This document shows positions 137 through 23,333 of a stretch of 25,047 nt of DNA, in pieces. The stretch comes from a virus. Lineage: Duplodnaviria > Caudoviricetes. The notes beneath the pieces were generated by a model that saw nothing but the letters and a program-made list of their open reading frames with translations, was not told the origin of the DNA and did not search any database. The translations under genes and the position numbers were made by a program. The first letter of the stretch is position 1. Every line of letters begins with the position of its first letter. Location of the stretch: positions 1 through 25,047 of IMG/VR virus record IMGVR_UViG_3300028188_000026; one strand, written 5' to 3'.

Positions 137-303
137 GTAAAGATATGTATTATAAATGTGATGATTGTGGAAAGAAGTTTGAGTTTGATGACACTTGTTT
201 CCTTGGAAATATTGAAAGAATGGAAGACGAAGAGTGTGACCCTATGATGGATTTAGATTGTTATTGTAGTGATTGTGTAGGTAAGCATGAAACGAATCAT
301 TGA
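133..303 (+). CDS. 56-aa CxxC...CxxC zinc-finger-like hypothetical protein
   Basis: GTG start at 133 overlaps the upstream TGA, with an AAGGGG SD-like sequence at 122-127. Translation is MSKDMYYKCDDCGKKFEF...DCYCSDCVGKHETNH* (TGA 301-303). Not in the supplied ORF track. Confidence 0.65.
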   Translation: MSKDMYYKCDDCGKKFEFDDTCFLGNIERMEDEECDPMMDLDCYCSDCVGKHETNH

Positions 304-703
304 ACGTAAAAAAGAGAAACGACATATTATTGAAACAATGATAGTTAGTCACTTCAGTCAGTTCCCTGATTCTGATAAGGCAATCATCGAGATAAAAGAT
401 GATAAAGACTCTCGCTCAGTAAAGCAGAACAGACTGTATTGGGAGTGGATTAACGTCATAGGTAATGAATTGGGCTATACTAAAGCCGAGACACACATAC
501 TGTTCAGAGACAAGTTTCTAGGTTACAATGAACTGACGACAAAGAAAGGTGCAACAATAAAAGAACTAAAAAGCACTACTAAGTTGAAGGTGGGCGAGAT
601 GAAGGACTACTTAGAGCAGATAGATATATTTGTTAGTGAGTATGGCATTATGTTGCCTAGACCTGAAGATTTGTATTTAGAATCAATGGGTTACAAGAAA
701 TGA
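287..703 (+). CDS. ninB: NinB/YbcN-family recombination-associated protein
   Basis: Motifs RSxxQNxxYWxW and STTKLxVxEMxDYLExIxxFxxExGIxLP are typical of the NinB/Orf family; nin-like context upstream of terminase. Confidence 0.75.
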   Translation: MKRIIERKKEKRHIIETMIVSHFSQFPDSDKAIIEIKDDKDSRSVKQNRLYWEWINVIGNELGYTKAETHILFRDKFLGYNELTTKKGATIKELKSTTKLKVGEMKDYLEQIDIFVSEYGIMLPRPEDLYLESMGYKK

Positions 704-1072: not shown

Positions 1073-1479
1073 TGACAGCTAAGAAAACAGATAACTTCCT
1101 TCCACTAGGGAGACCCACTAAATACAATGAAGAAATGCAGGCTAAAGCAGATGAATATCTTGCAACTTATACCGATGACAGTGTAGTTCCAAGCGTAGCA
1201 GGACTGTCTTTATATATTGATATTCCTGATAGCACTATCTATGATTGGAAGGCTAAACATCCTGAATTTACGGGTACGTTAGGCAGAATCAAGAAGAAAC
1301 AAGAGGCAGAATTGCTTAATAAAGGGCTTACAAGTGAGTTTAATGCAACGATTGTTAAGTTAATGCTACACAACCATGGCTACAGTGATAAGGTCGAACA
1401 AGACTTAAAATCAAGCGATGGCTCAATGAAACCTACAGTGATTGAATTAGTGGCTAAGAGTGAAGAAAGCACAGATTGA
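1072..1479 (+). CDS. terS: Terminase small subunit (HTH DNA-packaging protein)
   Basis: GRPTKY N-terminus, HTH-like PSVAGLSLYIDIPDSTIYDW...HPEF, and position directly upstream of the large terminase. Confidence 0.85.
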   Translation: MTAKKTDNFLPLGRPTKYNEEMQAKADEYLATYTDDSVVPSVAGLSLYIDIPDSTIYDWKAKHPEFTGTLGRIKKKQEAELLNKGLTSEFNATIVKLMLHNHGYSDKVEQDLKSSDGSMKPTVIELVAKSEESTD

Positions 1480-2740
1480 ATTACCACCTAAGTTAGTTCC
1501 TGTCTTTGAGGGTGAAGCAAGATACAGAATAGCATACGGTGGACGTGGTTCAGGCAAGACAAGAACCTTTGCACTAATGACTGCTGTTATGGGTTATCGT
1601 TGGGGAATGGCAGGTAAGAAAGGACAGATACTATGCGCTCGTGAGTTTATGAACTCCCTAGACGATTCATCACTAGAAGAAATCAAGACATCCATAAGGT
1701 CAATAGACTGGCTTAACGATTATTACGATGTGGGCGAGAAGTACATCAGGTCTAAAGACGGCAACATACATTACACCTTTGTAGGACTAAGACGTTCACT
1801 AGATGCTATTAAGTCTAAGGCACGTATCATGTTGGCTTGGGTGGATGAGGCAGAACCAATGAGCGACATGGCATGGCAGAAACTAATACCAACAGTTCGA
1901 GAAGAAGGCTCAGAGATATGGGCAACGTGGAATCCCGAATCAAAGTACAGCGCAACACATGAACGATTTAGAATATCACCACCTAAAAACTCTAAGATAG
2001 TTGAACTCAATTACACTGACAATCCTTGGTTTCCAGATGTACTAGAGGCAGAACGCCTAGAAGACAAAGCCAAACGTATCGATATGTACGAACACATTTG
2101 GGAAGGTGGCTTCTTAGTATTCAGTGAAGGCGCTTACTATTCAACAGAGATGCGCTTGGCTAAGGAAGAAGATAGAGTAGGTGAGGTTAGATACGATAGA
2201 GATAAGGGTGTAGTAACTGCTTGGGATTTAGGAATAGGCGACTCAACATCTATTTGGTTTGCTCAGTACATCGGCACAGAGATACACATCATTGACTATT
2301 ACGAAGCATCAGGTGTTGGATTAGACCACTATGCTATCGTATTACAAGAGAAAGGTTACGTGTATGAACAACACATATTACCGCATGATGTAAGGGTTAG
2401 AGAACTAGGCACAGGCAAGTCAAGACTAGAGACATTAGATGGTTTAGGCATTAGAAATGTAGAGATAGCACCTGACCTAAGAGTAGATGACGGCATTCAA
2501 TCAGCACGTTCAATGATTCATAAATGTTGGTTTGATGCAAATAAATGTGAAAAAGGTATCGATTGTTTGATAAACTACACACGAGATTGGGATGAAAACG
2601 GTAAGACTTGGCGCTCAAGACCTCGACATGATTGGGCATCGCATGGCGCAGATGCTTTTAGATATTTGGCGATAGGTTACAGACCAATGAACGAATCTTG
2701 GGGTAAGCCTATAAAACGTAACATTAAGGGAGTTGTTTAA
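1460..2740 (+). CDS. terL: Terminase large subunit (PBSX/Terminase_3-type ATPase plus RNase H-like nuclease)
   Basis: Walker A GGRGSGKT, Walker B WVDEAE, coupling-motif region TWNP, nuclease motifs AWDLGIGDSTSIW and HGADAFRY; GTG start. Confidence 0.95.
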   Translation: MKKAQIELPPKLVPVFEGEARYRIAYGGRGSGKTRTFALMTAVMGYRWGMAGKKGQILCAREFMNSLDDSSLEEIKTSIRSIDWLNDYYDVGEKYIRSKDGNIHYTFVGLRRSLDAIKSKARIMLAWVDEAEPMSDMAWQKLIPTVREEGSEIWATWNPESKYSATHERFRISPPKNSKIVELNYTDNPWFPDVLEAERLEDKAKRIDMYEHIWEGGFLVFSEGAYYSTEMRLAKEEDRVGEVRYDRDKGVVTAWDLGIGDSTSIWFAQYIGTEIHIIDYYEASGVGLDHYAIVLQEKGYVYEQHILPHDVRVRELGTGKSRLETLDGLGIRNVEIAPDLRVDDGIQSARSMIHKCWFDANKCEKGIDCLINYTRDWDENGKTWRSRPRHDWASHGADAFRYLAIGYRPMNESWGKPIKRNIKGVV

Positions 2741-5700
2741 TGGGTTTATTTGATGAGTTGTTAAGTCAGCCAGGTGTTACAGCAACAGGCGGTGGCACAG
2801 GGTACGACCCAAGAGATGACGAGATGGAAGTGCGCTTCACAGCAGAAGGCACTCCTTACAATGCTAGACCTGGTACTCCGTTACATGAAGGACACACTAG
2901 AGCAAACCAACCTATGTTCGACCTTCCAACGGTCGAAGTACCTACAGAACCATCATTACTGAATTACGGATATGACCAAACTGTACAGCCACCTCAACAA
3001 GTTGACGTAAATCCTACGCAAGAATACATTGACCCTATGTCGTTATACAACAGACAAGGCAGAGCAGATTACATCCCACAGAACATTGTAGATACAAACA
3101 CAGTATTCGGCAGTCCAAGTCTAGGCTCATTACCAAACCCTACTCAAGACGCTAGTGCTATGGAAGCACTTAACAAAGCATCAGCAGAACGTGATAAACA
3201 AGCGCAGATTGAAGCACAACTACAGGTATTACTAAAGGCTCAAGGACTAGATAATCGTGCTGAGTGGGATATGCGTAGAGCAGACGACCAATTTGCTAAC
3301 CTAGACAAGCAGTACGATATTAACAACCAAGTAGCCACAGATGACTTCGGCAACCCACTATTAAACGCTAATGAGCATGGTCAAACAAGTTACGACATAA
3401 ACGCAATCAAACAAGAGTCTCTTGACAATCTAATGATGCAGGATAGAAAGCCTGTAGCCAATGTAGCCACCCCACCTGTAGTAGCACCAACAGACAACAA
3501 ACCTGATTATCCAAGCAACATGACACCTTATGCAATAAACCTACTAGAGGAACAACGCAAAAGAAACGAGATGTTTCAGGGTATAGGTGATACAGCAACA
3601 GGTATTTATGAAGGCGCTAAGACATTAGGCTCAGATATTTATGATGACGTTACAGGTTTTGACTATAAAGGATTAGGTTCAGATATTTATAAGGAAGGTG
3701 CTGACGCTGTACAAGGCGCAAAGGATTTATACACAGACTTTAATAAGCCTGATACTCGTACTCACAGACAAAGGATGATTGATAATCAGACTAATGTTGT
3801 TGAGCCTGTTAAAGAGTTTATAACTGATACTATTCCTGAATTTGCAGGTGATGCTTATGAAGGCATCTTAGGTCCTCTTGTAGGTAATTGGTATGACAAC
3901 CTGTCTAAAGATGCAGAAGGTCCTACACAAGAGTACGATTCAGCAACAGGCGTTCAGAAACCTATGGTGTTTAACTTTAAGAAGTCTCTAGCAACAGAAG
4001 TTAAAGGACTTGTGGATGCTGCAACAAGTCCTGTAGAGACAGCAGATGCTATCGCTAGTGTAATTTCAGGCGCAGTTCAACACACGCTACCTGATGATAT
4101 GGCTTGGAATGAAGACTCTAAGAAGATGGCAGGGGCTATTGGACAAATGTACGCTGAAAGATATGGCTCTATAGATGGGTTTAAGAAAGCATTAGCAGAA
4201 GACCCTGTTCCTGTATTAATTGAATTAACAGGCGCAGGATTAGTTAGTAAGGTGGTTGCAGCGAGAACCCTTGCTTCTATGAAGAAAATTGATATGGGTG
4301 AGGCTTTAGAGAAGTTCACAGACAAGGCTGTAGAGACAGCAACAATGGGAATGGAAAAGAGAGGGTTTCGTAAGGAACTGATGGTTTTTCATGGTTCGCC
4401 TCATAAGTTTGAAAAGTTCGACCACAAGTATATGAGTTCAGGTGAAGGTGGTCAAATGATGGGTTATGGTACTTATCTTGCAGAGCATCCTAGTGTTGCT
4501 AAAACTTATGCGCCTCGCGACATGGTCATGGAAGACAAGTTATTGAAATTGTATGAAGACGCTATGGACTTTAGAAGACCTGGTGGCGAAGACGTTTTTG
4601 CCTATGAGGTTTATGAAAGAGCATTAGACCATTGGACTCCAAAGGAAATATCAGAATACATCAAAGACACATATAAGGGCGATGATTTAGTTAAAGCAGA
4701 AAAAGCACTTGGCAATTTCAAAAAAATGTATGAGGAGTCTGACAGTTATTTATACGATATAGATTTGCCCGATAAAACCATTGCTAAGATGCTAGACTCT
4801 GATAAAACAATTATGGAGCAATCTGATTACGTTATATCTGCGTTAGAAGATATTTACCCTAACCTGTCTAAAGAAATTAACAACGCAAAACGAATTAAGC
4901 AGAAGTTAGACAAGACTACAAACAAGTCGGAAAGAGATGTGTTGTTCCAAGAGTATGCTGATATTAAAAATCGTTTAGGTTTCAACTTGGATGACAATGC
5001 TCATTCTCTCTATAGAGATTTAGAGAATACACTAGGCTCTGACAAGAAGGCTTCAAAACTTCTTGAAGATAAAGGAATACCAGGTGTGAAGTTTTGGGAT
5101 GGAGATTCAAGAGGTTCAGGTGAAGGAACAAGGAACTTTGTCATATTTAACGAGAATAGCGCTAAGGTTCTAAAGCGTAATGAGGTGGATATACCTAATA
5201 TTGACGATGGCGTACTAGGGCAGATAGGTAAAGCGACAGACCCCATGAAGTTTGATAATGCTGATGAATTTATTAAGGCTCAAGGCACTCTTGTTTATCA
5301 TGGCGGAACAAAGATAGATAAAATTAGCAATATAAGCGATGATTGGGGTGCTTTCTATATGTCAGACAACCCAACTTATGCTAAATCATTTGGTGGTAAT
5401 AAATCAGTTGTAAATGAAATGGTGTTAGATAAATCCGCTAACCTTGTTGATATGAGAAAACCGTCTGCTAAATTAGTATCTGAAATAAAAAGTAGATTAA
5501 AAAAAGATAATGCAGTTTTTACTGATAGTCGAATAGTTGAAGGAATAAAGGATGGAAAAGCGCATTTTTCTGAATTGCCCGAAGTTAAGGCTATATTGAA
5601 AGAATTAGGTTATGACGGTCAGATTACATCTGAAGTTCCGTGGGCTAAAAATATTGGGGTGTGGAATAAAAATGTTATCCAAACCAAGCAACAACTAACT

Positions 5701-7314
5701 GATACATGGAACAAAGCCCATAAAGTTGATGATGGTCTATTAGGTCAGGTTGATAAGACGAAAAACCCTACAACCGATTTAAGAAACTCTCTTAGAGAGG
5801 GTGGATATAAAATAGACATGGACGAAGGCATCTCGGGCGAAATTAAGTTAAGTCGTATCGAAGTTCCACCTAATGTTCGGGGCAAAGGACTTGGTACAGA
5901 TGCGATGAATCAGATTGTTAAAATGGCTGATGAAAGTGGCAAGACTATAACTTTAACACCTGATACATCATTTGGCGCAACCTCAGTTTCGAGATTAAAG
6001 AAATTCTATAAGAAGTTTGGATTTGTAGAGAACAAGGGTAAGAACAAAGACTTTTTATACAAAGATTCAATGCTACGACTACCTAACAGTCCAAAAGTGG
6101 GCAAACCTAACAAAGTAACAGATGGTCTATTAGGTCAGACACCTGTCAAGGGTGTACACCTAACCATGGAAGAGTTTGATGACTTCAAGATGGGTGCTAC
6201 AAGAGACTCAGAGCCAGGCATCCACTTTGGTACTAATTCGGCATCAGGCGAGAAACTGATTGAAAACAAGAAGTTTCAGATTGAGAATAATTATATAGGC
6301 AAGCCTAGAAACCCTGTTAATTCTCCACAAGGTATTAAGAAGATACAGGCTGACTTAAACATTAGTAAGCCACTTAGAGTATTTGAAGAACAAAGAATGA
6401 TGGGCGGAAGATGGGATGCTCACCAAATTGGTAGAAGTTTGTTTGAAGTAGATGAGTTGCCAAGAAGGTTTACTGAAGCAGACAGAGAAGCGTGGTACGA
6501 AGGGTATTTATCTTCCAAGGTTACTATTGATGGACGAGAAGTAGATGTACCACTTGAAGTCAACAAAGATGGCTCTACTCCAGATTGGAATTATTCAGAG
6601 TTAGATGCCAAGCAAGAATCAGAGTGGATTAATAATTTTCTTAATGAACGTGGGTACGACCATATTATCTATGACAACGCTTATGAAGGTGGTGGTGATT
6701 CACTTGGTGTATATGATTTATCTAAGATTAAGCAAACAGGCGCAGAGCGCTATGCAACATTAGCAATACCTACAGGCGGTCTATTAGGAACACAAGAAGA
6801 AACACAAGCAGAAGAAACCAAAGGCGGAATCCTAAACAACGTGAAATCTTGGAAGCCTAACAACAACCTAACAACATTCGTTAAGACTATGGAGAACGAC
6901 CCACTAAGAGTAGGCAATGCCAAGGTCAAAGAATATGATGATGTAGGTCATAAGGCTAAAGGTTATGGCACTAAGTCAGGTTTACTTGCACAAGATACAG
7001 AGGCAGAAGCAACCAAAGCGCTTAATAAGAAGTTAGTCGATGCTAATAAGGCAGTTGACAGACTTGTTAAAATAGACTTAAATGAAGACCAAAGGAATGC
7101 GTTAGTATCATTAGTCTATAACGTAGGTGCAACAGGTTTTGGTAAATCTAATGCCCTAAAGGCGTTAAATAATGGTAATATAAAGACATTCTTAAAAGAA
7201 GCGTTCGACCCTAAAGTGGGCTTTGTCAAGACAAAAGGTAAGATTGTTAAAGGCTTAGTCAATAGAAGAGCGAGAGAAAAGCAGATTTTCACTAAGGGTA
7301 ACTATGGCAATTAA
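2740..7314 (+). CDS. Large polyvalent (multi-effector) protein: low-complexity N-terminus, three ADP-ribosyltransferase-like domains, GNAT acetyltransferase and C-terminal GH24-like lysozyme; probably virion-associated
   Basis: ART-like 1 about 4381-5180 (FHGSPHKF...GEG...GYGTYLAE...GIPGVKF...NFVIF). ART-like 2 about 5280-5690 (YHGG...GAFYMSDNPTYAKSF...GYDG). GNAT about 5770-6085 (IEV...RGKGLGT...FYKKFGF). ART-like 3 about 6145-6735 (VH...GIHFGT...GYDHIIYDN..E). Lysozyme about 6850-7311 (GYGT...QRNALVSLVYNVG...GLVNRRAREKQIF). TAATG coupling to terL. Confidence 0.8.
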   Translation: MGLFDELLSQPGVTATGGGTGYDPRDDEMEVRFTAEGTPYNARPGTPLHEGHTRANQPMFDLPTVEVPTEPSLLNYGYDQTVQPPQQVDVNPTQEYIDPMSLYNRQGRADYIPQNIVDTNTVFGSPSLGSLPNPTQDASAMEALNKASAERDKQAQIEAQLQVLLKAQGLDNRAEWDMRRADDQFANLDKQYDINNQVATDDFGNPLLNANEHGQTSYDINAIKQESLDNLMMQDRKPVANVATPPVVAPTDNKPDYPSNMTPYAINLLEEQRKRNEMFQGIGDTATGIYEGAKTLGSDIYDDVTGFDYKGLGSDIYKEGADAVQGAKDLYTDFNKPDTRTHRQRMIDNQTNVVEPVKEFITDTIPEFAGDAYEGILGPLVGNWYDNLSKDAEGPTQEYDSATGVQKPMVFNFKKSLATEVKGLVDAATSPVETADAIASVISGAVQHTLPDDMAWNEDSKKMAGAIGQMYAERYGSIDGFKKALAEDPVPVLIELTGAGLVSKVVAARTLASMKKIDMGEALEKFTDKAVETATMGMEKRGFRKELMVFHGSPHKFEKFDHKYMSSGEGGQMMGYGTYLAEHPSVAKTYAPRDMVMEDKLLKLYEDAMDFRRPGGEDVFAYEVYERALDHWTPKEISEYIKDTYKGDDLVKAEKALGNFKKMYEESDSYLYDIDLPDKTIAKMLDSDKTIMEQSDYVISALEDIYPNLSKEINNAKRIKQKLDKTTNKSERDVLFQEYADIKNRLGFNLDDNAHSLYRDLENTLGSDKKASKLLEDKGIPGVKFWDGDSRGSGEGTRNFVIFNENSAKVLKRNEVDIPNIDDGVLGQIGKATDPMKFDNADEFIKAQGTLVYHGGTKIDKISNISDDWGAFYMSDNPTYAKSFGGNKSVVNEMVLDKSANLVDMRKPSAKLVSEIKSRLKKDNAVFTDSRIVEGIKDGKAHFSELPEVKAILKELGYDGQITSEVPWAKNIGVWNKNVIQTKQQLTDTWNKAHKVDDGLLGQVDKTKNPTTDLRNSLREGGYKIDMDEGISGEIKLSRIEVPPNVRGKGLGTDAMNQIVKMADESGKTITLTPDTSFGATSVSRLKKFYKKFGFVENKGKNKDFLYKDSMLRLPNSPKVGKPNKVTDGLLGQTPVKGVHLTMEEFDDFKMGATRDSEPGIHFGTNSASGEKLIENKKFQIENNYIGKPRNPVNSPQGIKKIQADLNISKPLRVFEEQRMMGGRWDAHQIGRSLFEVDELPRRFTEADREAWYEGYLSSKVTIDGREVDVPLEVNKDGSTPDWNYSELDAKQESEWINNFLNERGYDHIIYDNAYEGGGDSLGVYDLSKIKQTGAERYATLAIPTGGLLGTQEETQAEETKGGILNNVKSWKPNNNLTTFVKTMENDPLRVGNAKVKEYDDVGHKAKGYGTKSGLLAQDTEAEATKALNKKLVDANKAVDRLVKIDLNEDQRNALVSLVYNVGATGFGKSNALKALNNGNIKTFLKEAFDPKVGFVKTKGKIVKGLVNRRAREKQIFTKGNYGN
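5206..6792 (+). repeat. Four dispersed ~18-nt direct repeats encoding the inter-domain linker (D/G)G(L/V)LG(Q/T)
   Basis: gatggtctattaggtcag is exact at 5731-5748 and 6121-6138. gatggcgtactagggcag at 5206-5223 matches 14/18. ggcggtctattaggaaca at 6775-6792 shares the core ggtctattagg. Confidence 0.85.
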
Positions 7315-7933
7315 TACATACGCAACGTTAAAGACAGCAATAGCAGACTTTCTTAACAGAGACGACCTAACATCGGCTATCGAGAACTTCATTGCATTAG
7401 CAGAAGCACAGATTAACAGAGACATTCGTCATTGGAAGATGGAGAAACGCTCTAGTGGTCAACAAAGTGCTAACGATGAATACGCACAGATACCTGCTGA
7501 TTGGATGGAGACTATTAGATTCCACGTCACAGACAACGGAACATCACCTCTTGATTTAATCTCAAGGGCTGCTATGGCAGACAAGAGGGCATCTAATGAA
7601 GATTCTACAGGCACACCAACACATTACACACACGCAGACAGTCAGTTTCAGTTCTACCCAACACCGTCTGCTACAGTGAACACAGAATTGCTTTACTACG
7701 CTAAGACAACGGCTCTTAGTTCAAGTAACGCTGATAATTGGCTTTTACTAGAAGCACCTGATGTGTACCTTTATGGCGCACTGCTACATTCAGCACCGTA
7801 TCTAGGGGAAGATGAGAGAATCGCAGTATGGGCGCAGATGTATTCTGCTTCAGTATCACGATTAAACGAAGTATCTGAGAACGCTAGATTTAGTGGCTCA
7901 GGTTTAAAACTTAAAATAAGAGGATTAGGATAA
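7304..7933 (+). CDS. Head-tail adaptor / tail tubular protein A-like
   Basis: MAINTYATLKTAIADFLNRDDLT...FIALAEA N-terminus and NWLL...PDVYLYGAL motif typical of podophage adaptor proteins; first gene of the tail block. Confidence 0.7.
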   Translation: MAINTYATLKTAIADFLNRDDLTSAIENFIALAEAQINRDIRHWKMEKRSSGQQSANDEYAQIPADWMETIRFHVTDNGTSPLDLISRAAMADKRASNEDSTGTPTHYTHADSQFQFYPTPSATVNTELLYYAKTTALSSSNADNWLLLEAPDVYLYGALLHSAPYLGEDERIAVWAQMYSASVSRLNEVSENARFSGSGLKLKIRGLG

Positions 7934-12467: not shown

Positions 12468-12974
12468 ATGGGATTCTTGATGGACACAATAAGTAATTGG
12501 AACAAGAAGAATGACGAAGAAGATAAACTAAAGGGTCTTTTAGAGAAAAACGATTTTGATAGTAATGAAGACGCAGTAAGTACCGCTAGACAATACGAAG
12601 GTTTAAAGGCTCAAACACAAGATGGTTTTCTTTCACACGCAGGTGATGATTGGTTGGGTCGTATGGGTCAACGTACAGGAATGGGTAATTTAGGAATTGG
12701 AACAGAGCAAAGTTTTATGCCTGAATATCAAATGAACGGTCAGACTTTACCTGCTATCAATAGTGGAATACAACAGGGTAATATTGATTCATTAAGAGGT
12801 GGGTATGACCCACAAGCGCCTTATTATTCTTATGAAACACAAGGAACTCCTGGTGGAATACTTGACTTGTTTGATTCTAAAGATATTAGTGGAGCGTTAA
12901 ATTACACAAAAGACACAGGCGCTAGAAGCAGACAAGAAGAGATTTTCAAGATGTTTATGAGCATGATGGGTTAA
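12468..12974 (+). CDS. Hypothetical protein, probable internal virion protein
   Basis: AGGAG SD; low-complexity Gly/Asp-rich ORF between ejection genes. Confidence 0.55.
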   Translation: MGFLMDTISNWNKKNDEEDKLKGLLEKNDFDSNEDAVSTARQYEGLKAQTQDGFLSHAGDDWLGRMGQRTGMGNLGIGTEQSFMPEYQMNGQTLPAINSGIQQGNIDSLRGGYDPQAPYYSYETQGTPGGILDLFDSKDISGALNYTKDTGARSRQEEIFKMFMSMMG

Positions 12975-12987
12975 TTAGGAGAAAATT

Positions 12988-14544
12988 ATGAGTCCTTTGT
13001 TAGAAATGATTTTAAGTGGTCTTGCGACTAAAGCGTTTAATAAGACTGAAACAGGGCAACAATCAGATGAAGGTGTTAATTCATTATTAGACTATCTAAA
13101 GAACAATATATTAGGTGGTGATTCAGAACCACAAGAAGGATTACTGTCAACAAACCAGTCTTTTATCCCTCAAGAACAACAAGATTTAGGTGGCTTCACA
13201 AGAACAGCAGATGGAACTACAAACGTTATTCCTGCTATGCCTATGGTAACTGAGCGCAAGGTAGTAGATTATAACGCTCCTACAACACAGAGTCCTGTTA
13301 TGAATCTTTCTAATCAAGACTCTATGACACCTGAACAAGTAAACAAATATTCTAATATGTCTGACACTGTAGGAAACTACGATACGACTCTTGAAGATAT
13401 TATGAATAAAAACCTAAACAGCACAAGTCCTGCTGCTGACGCATTCAGTAGAGGTTCACAAGAAATGAATCTTGCTAAAGAAGAGCCTAGTTTTATTGAT
13501 ACTGCTATGGATAAAGTTTCTGATGCAAGTTCAGATATGTGGGGTTCTACGTTTGGTGATGAGTCTTGGAGATTGAGAAAGGCTCTTGCGCTTAACTCAA
13601 TGAGACTTAACCCTGACCAAGGGTTGGCTAAGTCAATGGAGACTAGGTTAGAGGGTCTTCGTAAGAATAAACAAGCAAACAAGACAGCGCAAGCGCTTAG
13701 AGCGATGGGTCGTGAAGATTTAGCCAAGATGGTTGAGTCAGGACAGATTGATGCTAAGACAGCAATTACTATTGCTTATAAGAAAGGTTCAGCATTCGAA
13801 GAGAAGTTAGAATTTATTGAAGGTAAGACACCTGAAGAGTTGGCACGCTACAAAGACCTTGGTATTCTAGGCGGTGGAACTACTATCAACATGGGTAATG
13901 ACAAGTATTACGATGCTATTGGAAAAGATATTGCTACTATGCAATCTACTCACAGAGAGCGTGGCGAGTTGGCTACAAGTTCTTTAAATGCTCTAAACGA
14001 GTTAAATACAGCAATAGTTAATTTTGGCGAGACAGGTCCTGATGAGTACACTAAGCAGAAATTAAGAGTTATGGCATCTAAGTATGGCATGGGAAGTCTT
14101 ATTGATGAGAGTAAGATGTCTAATGGACAGTACGTTGAGGCTATTAAAAACCGAATGGTTGCTGAAGAGTTGAGACGAAACAAAGGTCCACAAACAGATT
14201 TTGATGCTAAGTTTGCAGGAACATATATTCCTGGACTAGGAACTTCAACAGAAGCTAATAAAGCGCTGATGAACTACTCTAAGTCAATTTCATTGCAACA
14301 AACAATCTTCTCTAATATGTCTGCTAGTATTAGACTTAGTGATTTTGACAACGCCCAAAATACTATACGAGAAATCGACCAACTATCCTTAATGTCTCCT
14401 GGTGCTATGGAAAGAAATGACGGAACTTGGATTACATTCAATGAGTTCTTTAACTCTGACCTAGAGCAAATTAAGAGTATGTCTGCTCAAGAGAGATTAC
14501 AAGAGTGGTCTAATAGATATAAGCAAAGAATGGGGTTTAAATAA
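12988..14544 (+). CDS. Probable DNA ejection protein (gp20-like position)
   Basis: 518 aa with disordered N-half and helical C-half containing GGGTTINMG; AGGAG SD; synteny. Confidence 0.55.
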   Translation: MSPLLEMILSGLATKAFNKTETGQQSDEGVNSLLDYLKNNILGGDSEPQEGLLSTNQSFIPQEQQDLGGFTRTADGTTNVIPAMPMVTERKVVDYNAPTTQSPVMNLSNQDSMTPEQVNKYSNMSDTVGNYDTTLEDIMNKNLNSTSPAADAFSRGSQEMNLAKEEPSFIDTAMDKVSDASSDMWGSTFGDESWRLRKALALNSMRLNPDQGLAKSMETRLEGLRKNKQANKTAQALRAMGREDLAKMVESGQIDAKTAITIAYKKGSAFEEKLEFIEGKTPEELARYKDLGILGGGTTINMGNDKYYDAIGKDIATMQSTHRERGELATSSLNALNELNTAIVNFGETGPDEYTKQKLRVMASKYGMGSLIDESKMSNGQYVEAIKNRMVAEELRRNKGPQTDFDAKFAGTYIPGLGTSTEANKALMNYSKSISLQQTIFSNMSASIRLSDFDNAQNTIREIDQLSLMSPGAMERNDGTWITFNEFFNSDLEQIKSMSAQERLQEWSNRYKQRMGFK

Positions 14545-16865
14545 TGGCTGATGAAATTGATGATTTGTTATGGGGTGGAAACACAACGACACAACCTGTA
14601 GTAACGTCTCAAGGCGGTGTTGTGGGTACAACACAGACAATAGATGATGTATTTAAGGGTAGCAATGTGCAAGCAACAGAAAAACAGTTTGAGGAAAGCC
14701 TTGAGCCAATTCTGAGAGGACTTCCCGATAATGGTAGAATACTGAGAGATAATAAAACAGGCACTCTTGTTTTTCGTTCAAATAGTTACTCAACTAGCAA
14801 CCAAGATGAAATAAAGAGAATTATTGATGAAGGCAAACAGGGAGAGGTTGTTGACCTTGGCGCTGAAGCAGAATCTAAGTTCACAAAGGACATCTTAGGG
14901 CAAATACCTGAATCGGGTTTATTATCTCAACAGTTTATGAGAGGTGGACTTGGTGGTGGCTCTTGGATGGATGAGGTTATGACAAGCGACCCTGCCGAAC
15001 AGTGGAAGTATGAAAAGGCAAGAACAGCATACGAGCAAGAATATCCTGAAAGAGCATACCCTGCTCAAATTGCAGGTTTAGGTGCAAGTACCTACCTAAC
15101 AGGTGGATTGGCACAAGGCATTGGCAAGATTGATAAAGTGGGAAAAGCGGTTAATGTTGTTAAAAATTGGTACAGTAAACTAGCACCTCTTGCACAGAAA
15201 ACAGCACAAGTTAGTGGAGTATCTGCCTTATCAGGCGCTGAGGGATTGTTATATGGCGCAGGTGACGGTAACACACTTGATGAGCGCACAGTTAATGCAC
15301 TTCAAACAGGCGCATTAAACACTGCTATTACAGCTCCTATTGCAGTAGCGTTTCCTATTGTTGCAAGCATGATTGATAGATTTAAAATTGATAAGGCTAA
15401 GATTGGCGCTATTGCGACAGAGTTTGGTATATCAGTAGAAGCATCTCGTTTCATTAAAGATGCGTTTGATAGTGGTGCTACTCTAGCGGAAATGATGGAG
15501 AAAGTGTCTCGCTCAGGTAATGAGCGCATGATTGCTGATGCTAATACAGCGTTCACTAAATTGTTAGACGCTGCTGCTACAGTCTCACCACAAGCAGGTG
15601 GTGATATTCAGAAGATTGTTGGAGACCGTGTAACAGGGTCATCAACTAAGTTGGCAAGTGATTTAGACACAAGTTTAGGTGTTCAGCCACAAGGCGAGAA
15701 GACTATCTATGATGTGATTAGTGAAGAGACTAAAGTAGGACGTAGTGACGCATATACAAAAGCGTTCTCACAGCCTGTTGATTACACATCTCCACAAGGT
15801 CAACAGATAATAAGAACTCTACAAGTTTTGCCACAAAAAACGGTTGATGGCATCAATACATTGTTAGCGATTCGTGGAAAGTCACAACGATTAAAGTATA
15901 AGGGTGTTGACAAAAACGGAAACATCCAATACACAGAACTACCTGACGTAGAGACTCTTGATTTAATAAAGAGAGAGTTAGACAACATTGCTGAAGGAGC
16001 AAGAGACCCACTTACACAGAACATTAGTGGCATTAGCAACATGGTTGCAGATGAGGCAAGAAAAGCAATTAGAGACAACCTAAAGGCTATTAATCCTGCA
16101 TACGCAGATGCCTTGTCACAAGGTCAAGGAAAGATTCTAACGCAACAGGCTGTGAGGCTTGGTACAAAACTAATGAAAGATGGCACGCCATTAGATGAAG
16201 TTAAGATTTTCATGCGTAATGCTAGTAAGGAAGAGGTTAAAGGTGTAAGACAAGGTTTGCGTGAGCAGATTGAGAGCATTATGTCTAATGCTAAGACCGC
16301 ATCCACTACAGGGCGACCTGAAGATGTATCTGAGGCTATGAAGTTAATTACCACTATGTCGTCAAGAAGTGTACGCCTAAAAGTAGAGCAAATCTTAGGT
16401 AAGAAGACATCAGACGCTATGTTCAAGAGATTAGATGAGACTCGTTCTGCTATCGAATTACAAGCAGGTACACGTACAGGCTCGGCAACAGCGTCAAGAC
16501 AAGAAATAATGGGAACTGCTGAAAGAATGATTGAGCGTGGTCCTATCGGAACTTTGTTTGAAGGTCAACCTATTAAAGCGGTACAAAAACTAAGAGACTT
16601 CTTCACAGGAACAGGTGATGACTACTTACAATCACGTAAAGAAGAGATATTTAAAGAGGTGGCAGACTTACTCACTAAAACAGGAAAGGGTGGAAAAGAT
16701 GTTGATATGGCACTTAGATACTTAGACGCTGTTAAGAGTGGTCAAAAACTAAGCAATCCACAAGCATCATATTTAACATTGTTAATCAAAAATGGTTTAC
16801 AATCTACCTCAGCACCGATTGCTACAGGTGTGGGCGCACAGCGTTTCTTAACAGAAGAAAAATAG
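14544..16865 (+). CDS. Probable large DNA ejection protein (gp16-like position)
   Basis: 773 aa, largely helical, with hydrophobic Gly/Ala-rich segments (GLGASTYLTGGLAQG; TAITAPIAVAFPIVA) and a GSATA.R motif; last gene of the ejection block. Confidence 0.6.
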   Translation: MADEIDDLLWGGNTTTQPVVTSQGGVVGTTQTIDDVFKGSNVQATEKQFEESLEPILRGLPDNGRILRDNKTGTLVFRSNSYSTSNQDEIKRIIDEGKQGEVVDLGAEAESKFTKDILGQIPESGLLSQQFMRGGLGGGSWMDEVMTSDPAEQWKYEKARTAYEQEYPERAYPAQIAGLGASTYLTGGLAQGIGKIDKVGKAVNVVKNWYSKLAPLAQKTAQVSGVSALSGAEGLLYGAGDGNTLDERTVNALQTGALNTAITAPIAVAFPIVASMIDRFKIDKAKIGAIATEFGISVEASRFIKDAFDSGATLAEMMEKVSRSGNERMIADANTAFTKLLDAAATVSPQAGGDIQKIVGDRVTGSSTKLASDLDTSLGVQPQGEKTIYDVISEETKVGRSDAYTKAFSQPVDYTSPQGQQIIRTLQVLPQKTVDGINTLLAIRGKSQRLKYKGVDKNGNIQYTELPDVETLDLIKRELDNIAEGARDPLTQNISGISNMVADEARKAIRDNLKAINPAYADALSQGQGKILTQQAVRLGTKLMKDGTPLDEVKIFMRNASKEEVKGVRQGLREQIESIMSNAKTASTTGRPEDVSEAMKLITTMSSRSVRLKVEQILGKKTSDAMFKRLDETRSAIELQAGTRTGSATASRQEIMGTAERMIERGPIGTLFEGQPIKAVQKLRDFFTGTGDDYLQSRKEEIFKEVADLLTKTGKGGKDVDMALRYLDAVKSGQKLSNPQASYLTLLIKNGLQSTSAPIATGVGAQRFLTEEK

Positions 16866-21272: not shown

Positions 21273-21563
21273 ATGAAAATAGGTGAAAAAATACACGTTG
21301 ACCACAAGAACGATAAAGTAATCGTTCAAAAGATTCACACCGCTAACCCTGCCTTAAAAAGAGCAGAGCAGTTAAGAAGCCATAAATTAGATGGCATGGG
21401 TGAGAGTAAATTAGTTGGCACAATCCCTATTTTCCTTATTAAACAATGGTGTGACGAACTTGGAATCAAGTGGGGCGACATTGAAGCACGAAAAGAAGTG
21501 GTAAAAAAGAAAATACTCAGTGGTGAATTTGATAAACTACGAGTGTGGAAAGGAACTTATTAA
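21273..21563 (+). CDS. Conserved phage hypothetical protein after MCP
   Basis: AAGGA SD; the VG.IP..LI..W..E.G...KK..S.EF..LR..KG pattern is commonly seen downstream of this capsid type. Confidence 0.7.
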   Translation: MKIGEKIHVDHKNDKVIVQKIHTANPALKRAEQLRSHKLDGMGESKLVGTIPIFLIKQWCDELGIKWGDIEARKEVVKKKILSGEFDKLRVWKGTY

Positions 21564-21577
21564 TATAGGACAATAAA

Positions 21578-22084
21578 ATGGCAGATACTACTACTACAAC
21601 TTATAGTTTGACTAAACCTGAAGTAGGAGCGTCAGCAGACACATGGGGTGGTAAGATTAATACCAACCTAGACACTCTTGATGATTTATTCGATGGCACT
21701 ACAGCCGTTGCACCCAACCTAGTAGGTTTTAAAGTTGGTGGAACATCAGTAACTTCAACCGCAGCAGAACTCAACATATTAGATGGCGTTACTTCTACAG
21801 CAACAGAATTGAATATATTAGACGGTGTTACTGCTACTACAGCAGAGTTAAATATCTTAGACGGTGTAACTTCAACAGCAGCAGAGTTAAATGCCTTAGA
21901 TGGTATAACATCTACAGTAACAGAATTAAATTATACTGATGGAGTTACGTCTGCCATTCAAACTCAGTTAGACGCAAAACAAACAACGCTAACAAGTACA
22001 TCTAATGGCTACGGTACTAAAACTGTATCAACATCAGCACCTAGTGGTGGCTCTGATGGAGACATTTGGTATAAGGTAAGCTAA
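21578..22084 (+). CDS. Tail fibre protein 1 (virion anchor, 13-aa repeat shaft, GDIW end)
   Basis: N-terminal TKPEVG.S.DTWG.K.N.NLD.LD anchor; tandem [13 protein letters not shown] repeats; C-terminal [12 protein letters not shown]. Confidence 0.75.
21749..21952 (+). repeat. Coding tandem repeat: five 39-bp units plus a partial unit
   Basis: Units start at 21749, 21788, 21827, 21866, 21905 and 21944 (partial) and encode (V/I)T(S/A)T(A/T/V)(A/T)ELNxxDG with synonymous divergence. Confidence 0.9.
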
Positions 22085-22779: not shown

Positions 22780-22799
22780 GATTAATATAGGATTAAATT

Positions 22800-23333
22800 A
22801 TGGCAGATACTACAACTACTACATTTGGCTTTACTAAGCCTGAAATAGACGGCTCAGACGATACGTGGGGAACTAAACTAAATACAAATCTTGATACTAT
22901 TGATGATTTGCTAGACGGAACTACTGCTATTAAGCCAAACTTAACAGCAGGTCAATTCAAAGTAAGTGGAACGGCAGTTAGCACGACTGCTGCTGAACTT
23001 AATGTTGTTGATATGTCTGCTTCAGGCTCAACATCAGGTCAATTACTAACATCAACAGGAACTACAACAGTGCCTACTTGGCAGGACGCTCCTGTGTCTT
23101 TACCTAGTCAAACAGGCGAGGACGGTAAGTATCTAACAACAAATGGTACAGAGGCTTCTTGGGCAACAGTATCAAGTAACTCAACAGACCAAGGTCTGTA
23201 TGAACATGCTCATACTATAAGTACAGCAATTACAATTACAACTAATTACAACGCTATGTCAGCAGGACCTGTAACTATTGATGCTAGTGGCTCAGTTACC
23301 GTTCCAACTGGTTCAGTTTGGACAATCCTTTAG
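22800..23333 (+). CDS. Tail fibre protein 2 (paralogous anchor, different C-terminus)
   Basis: First ~70 aa are paralogous to the 21578 protein; [14 protein letters not shown] fibre repeats; C-terminal [10 protein letters not shown]...[12 protein letters not shown] module. Confidence 0.75.

Follow-up and report, generated by a model that had tools for sequence, protein, structure and literature searches.

A short in-frame DNA joint as the likely site of module gain, loss and reordering in a phage polyvalent protein

The enzymatic modules of a 1524-residue podophage protein, predicted to be packaged in the virion and injected into the host, are separated by an 18-nt coding joint that is likely the site at which modules are gained, lost and reordered, presumably through short-homology recombination by a Rad52-like annealing protein of the phage. 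We think it probable that crossovers between any two joints, driven by homology and taking place at low frequency, would yield products that stay in frame and keep their domains whole. The origin of the shifting architectures of polyvalent proteins was left open, as repeated accretion, in the passages of Iyer et al. 2017 that treat it (PMC5512222); one phage population now shows the joints, the cassettes and the products of exchange together, which renders the question of domain architecture testable.

Genomic setting and modules of the protein

The window (the whole stretch of DNA analysed, 25,047 nt) is the structural block of a podophage, with an SU10-type adaptor, portal and capsid and a GP4-type gp80. 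The gene under study is surrounded by virion genes of a portal-terminase phage (terS, terL, SU10 adaptor, portal, capsid), and the features that frame it are as follows.

287..703, + strand: NinB/Orf-like recombination mediator (PHROG 72, E 5e-23)
1460..2740, + strand: terminase large subunit (terL), upstream anchor
2740..7314, + strand: gene of the polyvalent protein (1524 aa), flanked by terL and the adaptor gene
7304..7933, + strand: SU10-type adaptor gene, downstream anchor

The sequencing runs that contain the window are marine or seawater metagenomes. Among cultured phages the best match to terL reaches 52%, and a scan of genome contigs with the adaptor returned only short MAG contigs or distant prophages, the best match (64%) being a 3.7-kb contig of a gammaproteobacterial MAG. 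Within the gene, a conserved core is followed by an array of modules and short junctions.

3940..4380, + strand: conserved core region, likely the virion-packaging or ejection part
4360..5205, + strand: ART1 module, the last fixed part before the array in the closest alleles
5206..5223, + strand: joint A1 (DGVLGQ), 2 nt off the consensus
5224..5730, + strand: ART2 cassette (M2a), ART-type fold
5731..5748, + strand: joint A2 (DGLLGQ), consensus copy
5749..6120, + strand: GNAT cassette (M4a), Pfam GNAT, E 2e-6
6121..6138, + strand: joint A3 (DGLLGQ), identical to A2
6139..6774, + strand: ART3-like cassette (M3a), weak ART-PolyVal match, E 0.025
6763..6792, + strand: type-B junction AIP[TA]GG[LV][LI]G, preceding the C-terminal muralytic module
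6793..7311, + strand: C-terminal lysozyme module, Pfam Phage_lysozyme over aa 1397-1513, E 3e-24

Judged by family matches, the ART1 (Pfam ART-PolyVal, E 3.9e-8, above the cut-off), GNAT and lysozyme labels of the original prediction are firm. ART2 falls below the Pfam cut-off (ART-PolyVal, E 8e-4) and nevertheless has an ART-type fold: a model built from a 30-sequence alignment (pLDDT 82.5) matches ART folds, the best PDB entry being 6kyf (Z 8.8, rmsd 3.8, 125 residues) and the other matches in the search being modest, with Z under 8. We take 6kyf to be the anti-CRISPR protein AcrIF11; a preprint on the AcrIF11-type ART reportedly names both terms together. The third ART label has a weak match only. 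In the ART2 model residues 1-26, which contain joint A1, are disordered and joint A2 starts at the end of the last helix, so that both flanking repeats lie outside the folded core rather than inside a domain. The position of the repeat relative to GNAT and ART3 is given by Pfam ranges and homologue coverage, the single-sequence model of the whole array (pLDDT 34.6) being unusable.

Modules of other alleles include ART-PolyVal and PBECR5 above cut-off, GNAT, and a ParB-like module that is weak in Pfam and reaches E 1e-8 in PHROGs, while the M6, M12, M14 and M18 cassettes gave no convincing family match. In some alleles the lysozyme is replaced by an unrelated C-terminal module matching PHROG endolysin/transglycosylase families (L056:413-952, L018:2611-3258). 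The adaptor gene changes along with the C-terminal module, with 82% identity in L057, though the terL of L057 is 98% identical.

Polyvalent proteins are single polypeptides of 2-15 domains whose enzymatic activities are unrelated (Iyer et al. 2017, PMC5512222). As in such proteins, unrelated enzymatic domains (here ART-PolyVal, GNAT and lysozyme) share one ORF, the gene belongs to a portal-terminase phage and lies among its virion genes, and the domain set (ART-PolyVal, GNAT next to ART, PBECR5, ParB-like) is the same; one GNAT family named in that paper adjoins an ART domain in a Mediterranean phage that is uncultured. On each feature that sequence can address, then, the 1524-aa protein belongs to the polyvalent proteins.

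A repeated joint between the modules

The motif G[LV]LG[QT] occurs four times in the ORF, in 18-mers starting at 5206, 5731, 6121 and 6775 whose spacings of 525, 390 and 654 nt are all in frame, exactly as had been read from the window. The copies at 5731 and 6121 are indeed identical over 18 nt, which makes them the longest exact repeat in the gene, and together with the weaker similarity noted upstream they form a 37-nt pair of 78% identity. The original claim of the same linker at every junction stands for the three type-A joints and has to be relaxed for the fourth (AIPTGGLLG at 6775), a related but looser sequence of a different class: this type-B junction has the middle of the type-A joint's DNA but is more variable, and its breakpoints scatter. 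Synonymous shuffling that left the protein unchanged made all six codons agree in 9 of 2000 trials (analytic value 0.0026) and produced an exact repeat of at least 18 nt in 5 of 300. Type-A copies are all direct and on the coding strand, with no copy elsewhere in the 25,047-nt window. Exact matches between joints, semi-conserved flanks included, run to 15-25 nt.

Three further features of junctions were observed. A third junction type, GGLLAQE, links M12 to M6 or GNAT without a type-A joint (L102:526-1581, minus strand; L134:360-1205, minus strand; L021:3400-3918). At L063:129-632, M18 is flanked by a direct repeat that runs about 30 nt past the joint and resembles a target duplication or the product of circle integration. 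Finally, the +1 frame of the joint (5207-5218, 5732-5743, 6122-6133) reads start-Val(Ala)-Tyr-stop, and the two variable positions of the joint are the wobble positions of that frame; this coincidence was seen post hoc, at about 1 in 28 by a rough count over eight tolerated sites, and leaves the last six fixed letters unaccounted for.

Alleles differ by gain, loss and reordering at the joint

Related loci were collected by adaptor (best 80 of 471), core region (23) and repeat pattern (44 viral and 42 metagenome stretches). Homology to terL, the adaptor or the core was seen in 132 regions; 48 of these were exact duplicates (including one of the window itself), and 84 were kept. A further 39 matches to the pattern had no such homology and were set aside as unplaced or due to chance, and later counts exclude 9 distant homologues of the core that occupy other positions in their genomes. 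Architectures were obtained by cutting ORFs at the joints. Full terL-to-adaptor regions numbered 31, of which 15 have one to three type-A joints and 16 none; the joint is present in 9 of 20 core homologues, all at identities of at least 51%, and the linker is absent from 36 of 41 ART2 homologues. This distribution indicates that the joint is a feature of one clade, and the last count that the linker is not an ancient part of the ART2 module.

Alignment of these homologous loci showed module presence and order switching at the repeat. In seven alleles the 1.5 kb before A1 is nearly the same (97.9-100% identity), yet each goes on into an array of its own, with five different modules after A1.

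Window allele: ART2-GNAT-ART3-lysozyme
L001 allele: GNAT-ART3-lysozyme
L084 allele: ART2-GNAT-M6, cut by the contig end
L057 allele: M5 (PBECR5)-other C-terminus
L081 allele: M5-lysozyme
L086 allele: M25, cut by the contig end
L164 allele: M6-M25-M5-other C-terminus

The simplest difference is that between the window and L001, which agree at 2456 of 2466 nt before A1 and at 1013 of 1014 nt after the ART2 cassette, itself absent from L001. The 1350-aa form is found on 28 contigs and the form of the window on 8. Missing from L001-type alleles, the ART2 cassette is present at 92-99% nucleotide identity, with other neighbours, in L027, L033 and L052. Depending on the allele, the neighbour of the GNAT cassette is ART1, ART2 or M6 on the upstream side and ART3, M6 or the terminal module on the downstream side. 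Domain order is thus variable among alleles and is even reversed: M6 stands before GNAT in L128 but after it in L084, and before M2b in L028 but after it in L127, L128 and L163.

To locate exchanges we defined a breakpoint as the end of a near-identical stretch (at least 94% over at least 150 nt) followed by unlike DNA. In all, the ORFs gave 97 distinct breakpoints. For 41 of them a type-A joint is no more than 30 nt away in both partners; another 7 touch a type-B junction and 3 a type-A joint in one partner, which leaves 46 with neither. Inside the arrays 41 of 48 sharp breakpoints fall within 30 nt of a joint in both partners against 8% expected, a comparison in which pairs are not independent and the array window starts at the first joint by construction. 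Breakpoints away from the joints are mostly small indels in the low-complexity front part, with 7 inside arrays, and in L045, L102 and L134 modules are fused without a type-A joint. Selection for whole domains would also favour breakpoints at domain boundaries. Each cassette extends from one joint to the next over a number of nucleotides divisible by three; crossing over at any pair of joints therefore keeps the reading frame and leaves domains whole. The seven arrays, the order reversals and the breakpoints at joints support the original proposal that the linkers serve as joints for domain gain, loss and reordering; the particular event it foresaw, a 390-bp deletion of GNAT between 5731 and 6121 giving an ART2-to-ART3 junction, was found in none of 195 loci and none of 8 runs, the loss actually seen being that of the 525-bp ART2 module.

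All sequences are assembled metagenomic contigs, in which recombination is not seen in action, and several alleles occur together in one run, which would suit the view that the alternative arrays are assembly chimeras at the repeat. That view is largely refuted and in our judgement barely credible. The run contigs use 31-letter words, longer than the 18-nt repeat, and the 525-nt skip (5228 to 5754) is bridged in run X11 by a contig with 229 nt on its shorter side. Junction copies moreover carry letter variants of their own (that of L001 matches neither window copy), and the same junctions recur in records from different samples. In 7 of 8 runs loose contig ends cluster at 5203-5231, 5726-5748 and 6088-6114; X2, possibly the run from which the window came, has none there. 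Circle or tandem-duplication joints were absent from the contigs of the 8 runs, which drop rare forms. The depth profile of run X9 (about 62 on ART1 and GNAT, 15 on ART2) was set aside, because the depth of contigs does not allow parts to be ranked.

Conservation of the joint at the DNA level

Across 39 distinct junction contexts the third positions of the joint are 90-97% fixed, with GGT in 38 (background 46%) and CAG in 37 (background 30%); codon 3 toggles between Val and Leu (GTA 25, CTA 12) and the residues DG.LGQ are almost invariant. Silent positions are near-fixed while one codon changes the amino acid, so what is conserved is the joint's DNA. Copies that differ in both their flanks use the same codon at identical residues in 3448 of 4071 cases (0.85), and sharing reaches 0.90-0.96 at five of the six joint codons, compared with 0.28-0.58 at random and with 0.67 and 0.50 in orthologous adaptor genes of 85-95% and 75-85% identity, respectively. 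The two variable positions track neither neighbour (0.51-0.64), a pattern compatible with crossovers whose place within the core varies. This conservation may reflect selection or homogenisation by crossovers.

It seems unlikely to us that the joint is a protein-level linker (a packaging tag, a binding or a cut site) whose DNA likeness is a passively inherited leader, with modules exchanged by general recombination and whole-domain products surviving. The near-invariance of DG.LGQ would favour such a linker, and so would the 4-fold enrichment of G[LIV]L in these proteins (171 against 42 expected), which persists in 22 proteins without a type-A joint (88 against 22) and is 2.5-fold in the 12988-type protein, the motif being depleted in terL, adaptor and nozzle. 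However, the 128 other G[LV]L motifs in these proteins use codons freely, so the peptide does not force the joint's letters, and in pairs sharing only one neighbour likeness falls sharply at both edges of the 18-mer; the scarcity of the linker among ART2 homologues tells against it as well. Processing by a head protease, as in virion polyproteins of the T4 internal-protein type, would call for a phage prohead protease and cleavage at the linker; a search for one protease family (Peptidase_S78, PF04586) found none in 5 of 5 records, and so gives no support to such cleavage, which may nevertheless occur. The original prediction had offered a protein-level signal as the alternative to a DNA joint; because the peptide is enriched also without the DNA joint a protein-level role is likely too, and the two are not exclusive.

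A likely engine: short-homology recombination

Among related records Sak is present in G001 and G002, ERF in G003 and G004 and SSB in G001; the annealing gene is thus seen in relatives, that part of the genome lying outside the window. Phage_integrase (PF00589) and Resolvase (PF00239) were matched in none of five related records, one of them 93% complete and the others possibly fragments. Taken together, Sak or ERF in relatives and the lack of an integrase or resolvase match make short-homology recombination the likely engine. According to the passages of De Paepe et al. 2014 on these enzymes (PMC3945230), Rad52-like proteins recombine short, diverged homologies with the help of Orf, and the minimal efficient pairing segment of Red-beta is 23-27 bp; as the 18-nt joint is below that length, events should be rare. 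The NinB/Orf homologue of the window is, by homology, a possible helper. Among the relatives Sak and ERF swap beside the SSB gene (L178:4474-5052, minus strand, and L182:2446-3036, minus strand), and G001 also has a C5 cytosine methylase and a second methyltransferase.

We propose that Sak or ERF, with SSB and perhaps NinB/Orf, would anneal any joint with any other during co-infection or replication, that the semi-conserved flanks would help by lengthening the exact matches, and that crossovers would in turn keep the joint copies alike. The joint itself may have grown from a GLL peptide linker already common in these proteins, with one type of copy becoming fixed at the DNA level. Fresh cargo would enter by rarer events at other patches of likeness, such as conserved ART-module ends. 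M2a and M2b form a nested swap in which both ends are shared and the middles are unlike (372 and 375 nt); the shared ends (window 5206-5308 and 5681-5747; M2b at L028:118-645) correspond to peptide motifs around ART2 homologues in distant polyvalent proteins, and might be the way in for further cargo.

A site-specific recombinase or nicking enzyme, encoded by phage, satellite or host and acting on the joint as on an integron-like array within one frame, would account for the sharp 18-nt edges and for letters that are near-fixed at all but two positions; the pair of short inverted arms (TGAC...GTCA) seen in 15 of 42 contexts and the longer direct repeat around the L063 module, as circle integration would leave, point the same way. 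We nevertheless consider such an enzyme quite improbable, though one supplied by the host is conceivable: the five related records hold no match to either recombinase family, the inverted arms are absent from 27 of 42 contexts, the window has no joint copy outside the array and the variable positions give no fixed cut point. Nor do the joints fold, all four junctions forming hairpins no better than shuffles (z -1.05 to 0.87). Promoters or terminators at the joints did not exceed chance (promoter-like sequences, 7 against 5.7 expected).

A predicted injected protein

That the protein is packaged and injected is predicted from its gene position, from the likeness of its core to a DNA transfer protein and from a fold match to a chain of cyanopodophage A4. 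The core shares 32% identity over 107 aa with a protein of phage DSL-LC05 annotated 'putative DNA transfer protein'; an atlas search with it returned unnamed viral clusters at 0.93-0.94, and P22 gp16, at only 0.85, is a lead at most. The ART2 model matches residues 1418-1600 of chain B of the A4 pre-ejectosome (PDB 9k3a; E 1.7e-4, Z 7.0, rmsd 3.8, 123 residues), by its numbering likely gp27. The ART-like reading of this chain comes from the fold search alone, and the main text of the A4 paper does not mention ADP-ribosyl (PMC12002296). The ART, GNAT, PBECR5 and ParB-like cargo is predicted to target macromolecules of the host during infection; for the terminal muralytic module the predicted target is the cell wall.

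The GLL peptide probably had a role at the protein level first and keeps it beside the DNA joint; from its sequence distribution, G[LIV]L may be a packaging or ejection tag. The motif is frequent in candidate internal virion proteins (12468-16865, 2740-7314) and rare in terL, adaptor and nozzle. It is conceivable, though we lean against it, that the array is integron-like, a selected and general domain-shuffling device in which one sequence would serve both as DNA crossover site and as packaging or release signal in the peptide of a virion-injected effector, needing no recombinase of its own and arising anew, each time with a different and unrelated linker, in several lineages of phages.

Comparison with known systems

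Integrons hold cassette arrays with a linked tyrosine recombinase (IntI) and attC single-strand hairpins at the cassette ends, and shufflons invert segments between inverted repeats by means of a linked invertase. The array described here resembles both in that cassettes are bounded by short repeated sites and change order. It differs in that no tyrosine or serine recombinase was found (5 related records), no attC-like hairpin is present, the repeats are direct rather than inverted and the cassettes are domains rather than genes. Exchange at conserved motifs within a gene has a precedent in the tail-fibre genes of T-even phages.

Closer parallels exist among phage exchange systems. PeSL elements are intergenic promoter/stem-loop sequences that move whole genes in T4-type phages; mini-circles were shown and no dedicated recombinase was identified in the parts of that report considered (Arbiol et al. 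2010, PMC2839356). As in PeSL and in Botstein-Campbell 'linker' exchange, short conserved sequences flank variable modules and serve as exchange sites; unlike PeSL, the joint is coding and in frame, shows no hairpin or promoter excess and moves domains. The mini-circles have no counterpart here, back-joints being absent from the 8 runs, whose contigs drop rare forms. The system also recalls Rad52-like mosaicism (PMC3945230), with Sak or ERF and SSB in relatives and a NinB/Orf homologue in the window, but that mosaicism, as its authors' passages describe it, uses chance patches of likeness, whereas here one short sequence repeats at domain boundaries. Polymorphic toxins and phage MuF toxins likewise have variable effector domains renewed by recombination (PMC3482391, PMC5576092); in the sections compared, however, polymorphic toxins vary a C-terminal toxin with separate cassettes and immunity genes, whereas here internal modules vary in number and order. 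MuF toxins combine an N-terminal MuF domain with a C-terminal toxin and have an immunity gene downstream; the present protein has no MuF family match and ends in a lysozyme, and its gene is followed by that of the adaptor.

The passages of the polyvalent paper compared here describe domain accretion and make a single suggestion of cassette recombination, in Verrucomicrobium; 'linker' and 'shuffl' have no match in its main text, and an in-frame DNA joint with exchanges at that joint sets the present array apart from those passages (PMC5512222). In the literature searched, which covered few subscription papers, no in-frame DNA joint in a phage polyvalent protein is described. With this joint the Botstein-Campbell linker idea is extended from modules made of genes to the domains of a single protein. 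Exchange at it would renew the enzymes that the virion is predicted to inject into the host, and it offers a search handle, the DNA between two copies being a candidate gene segment for a phage counter-defence enzyme.

Repeats of other kinds are present in the tail genes of the window. Four 39-nt tandem units lie in a tail-fibre-like gene (21749-21948), and two tail genes have a common 163-nt start of 72% identity (21559-21721 and 22781-22943).
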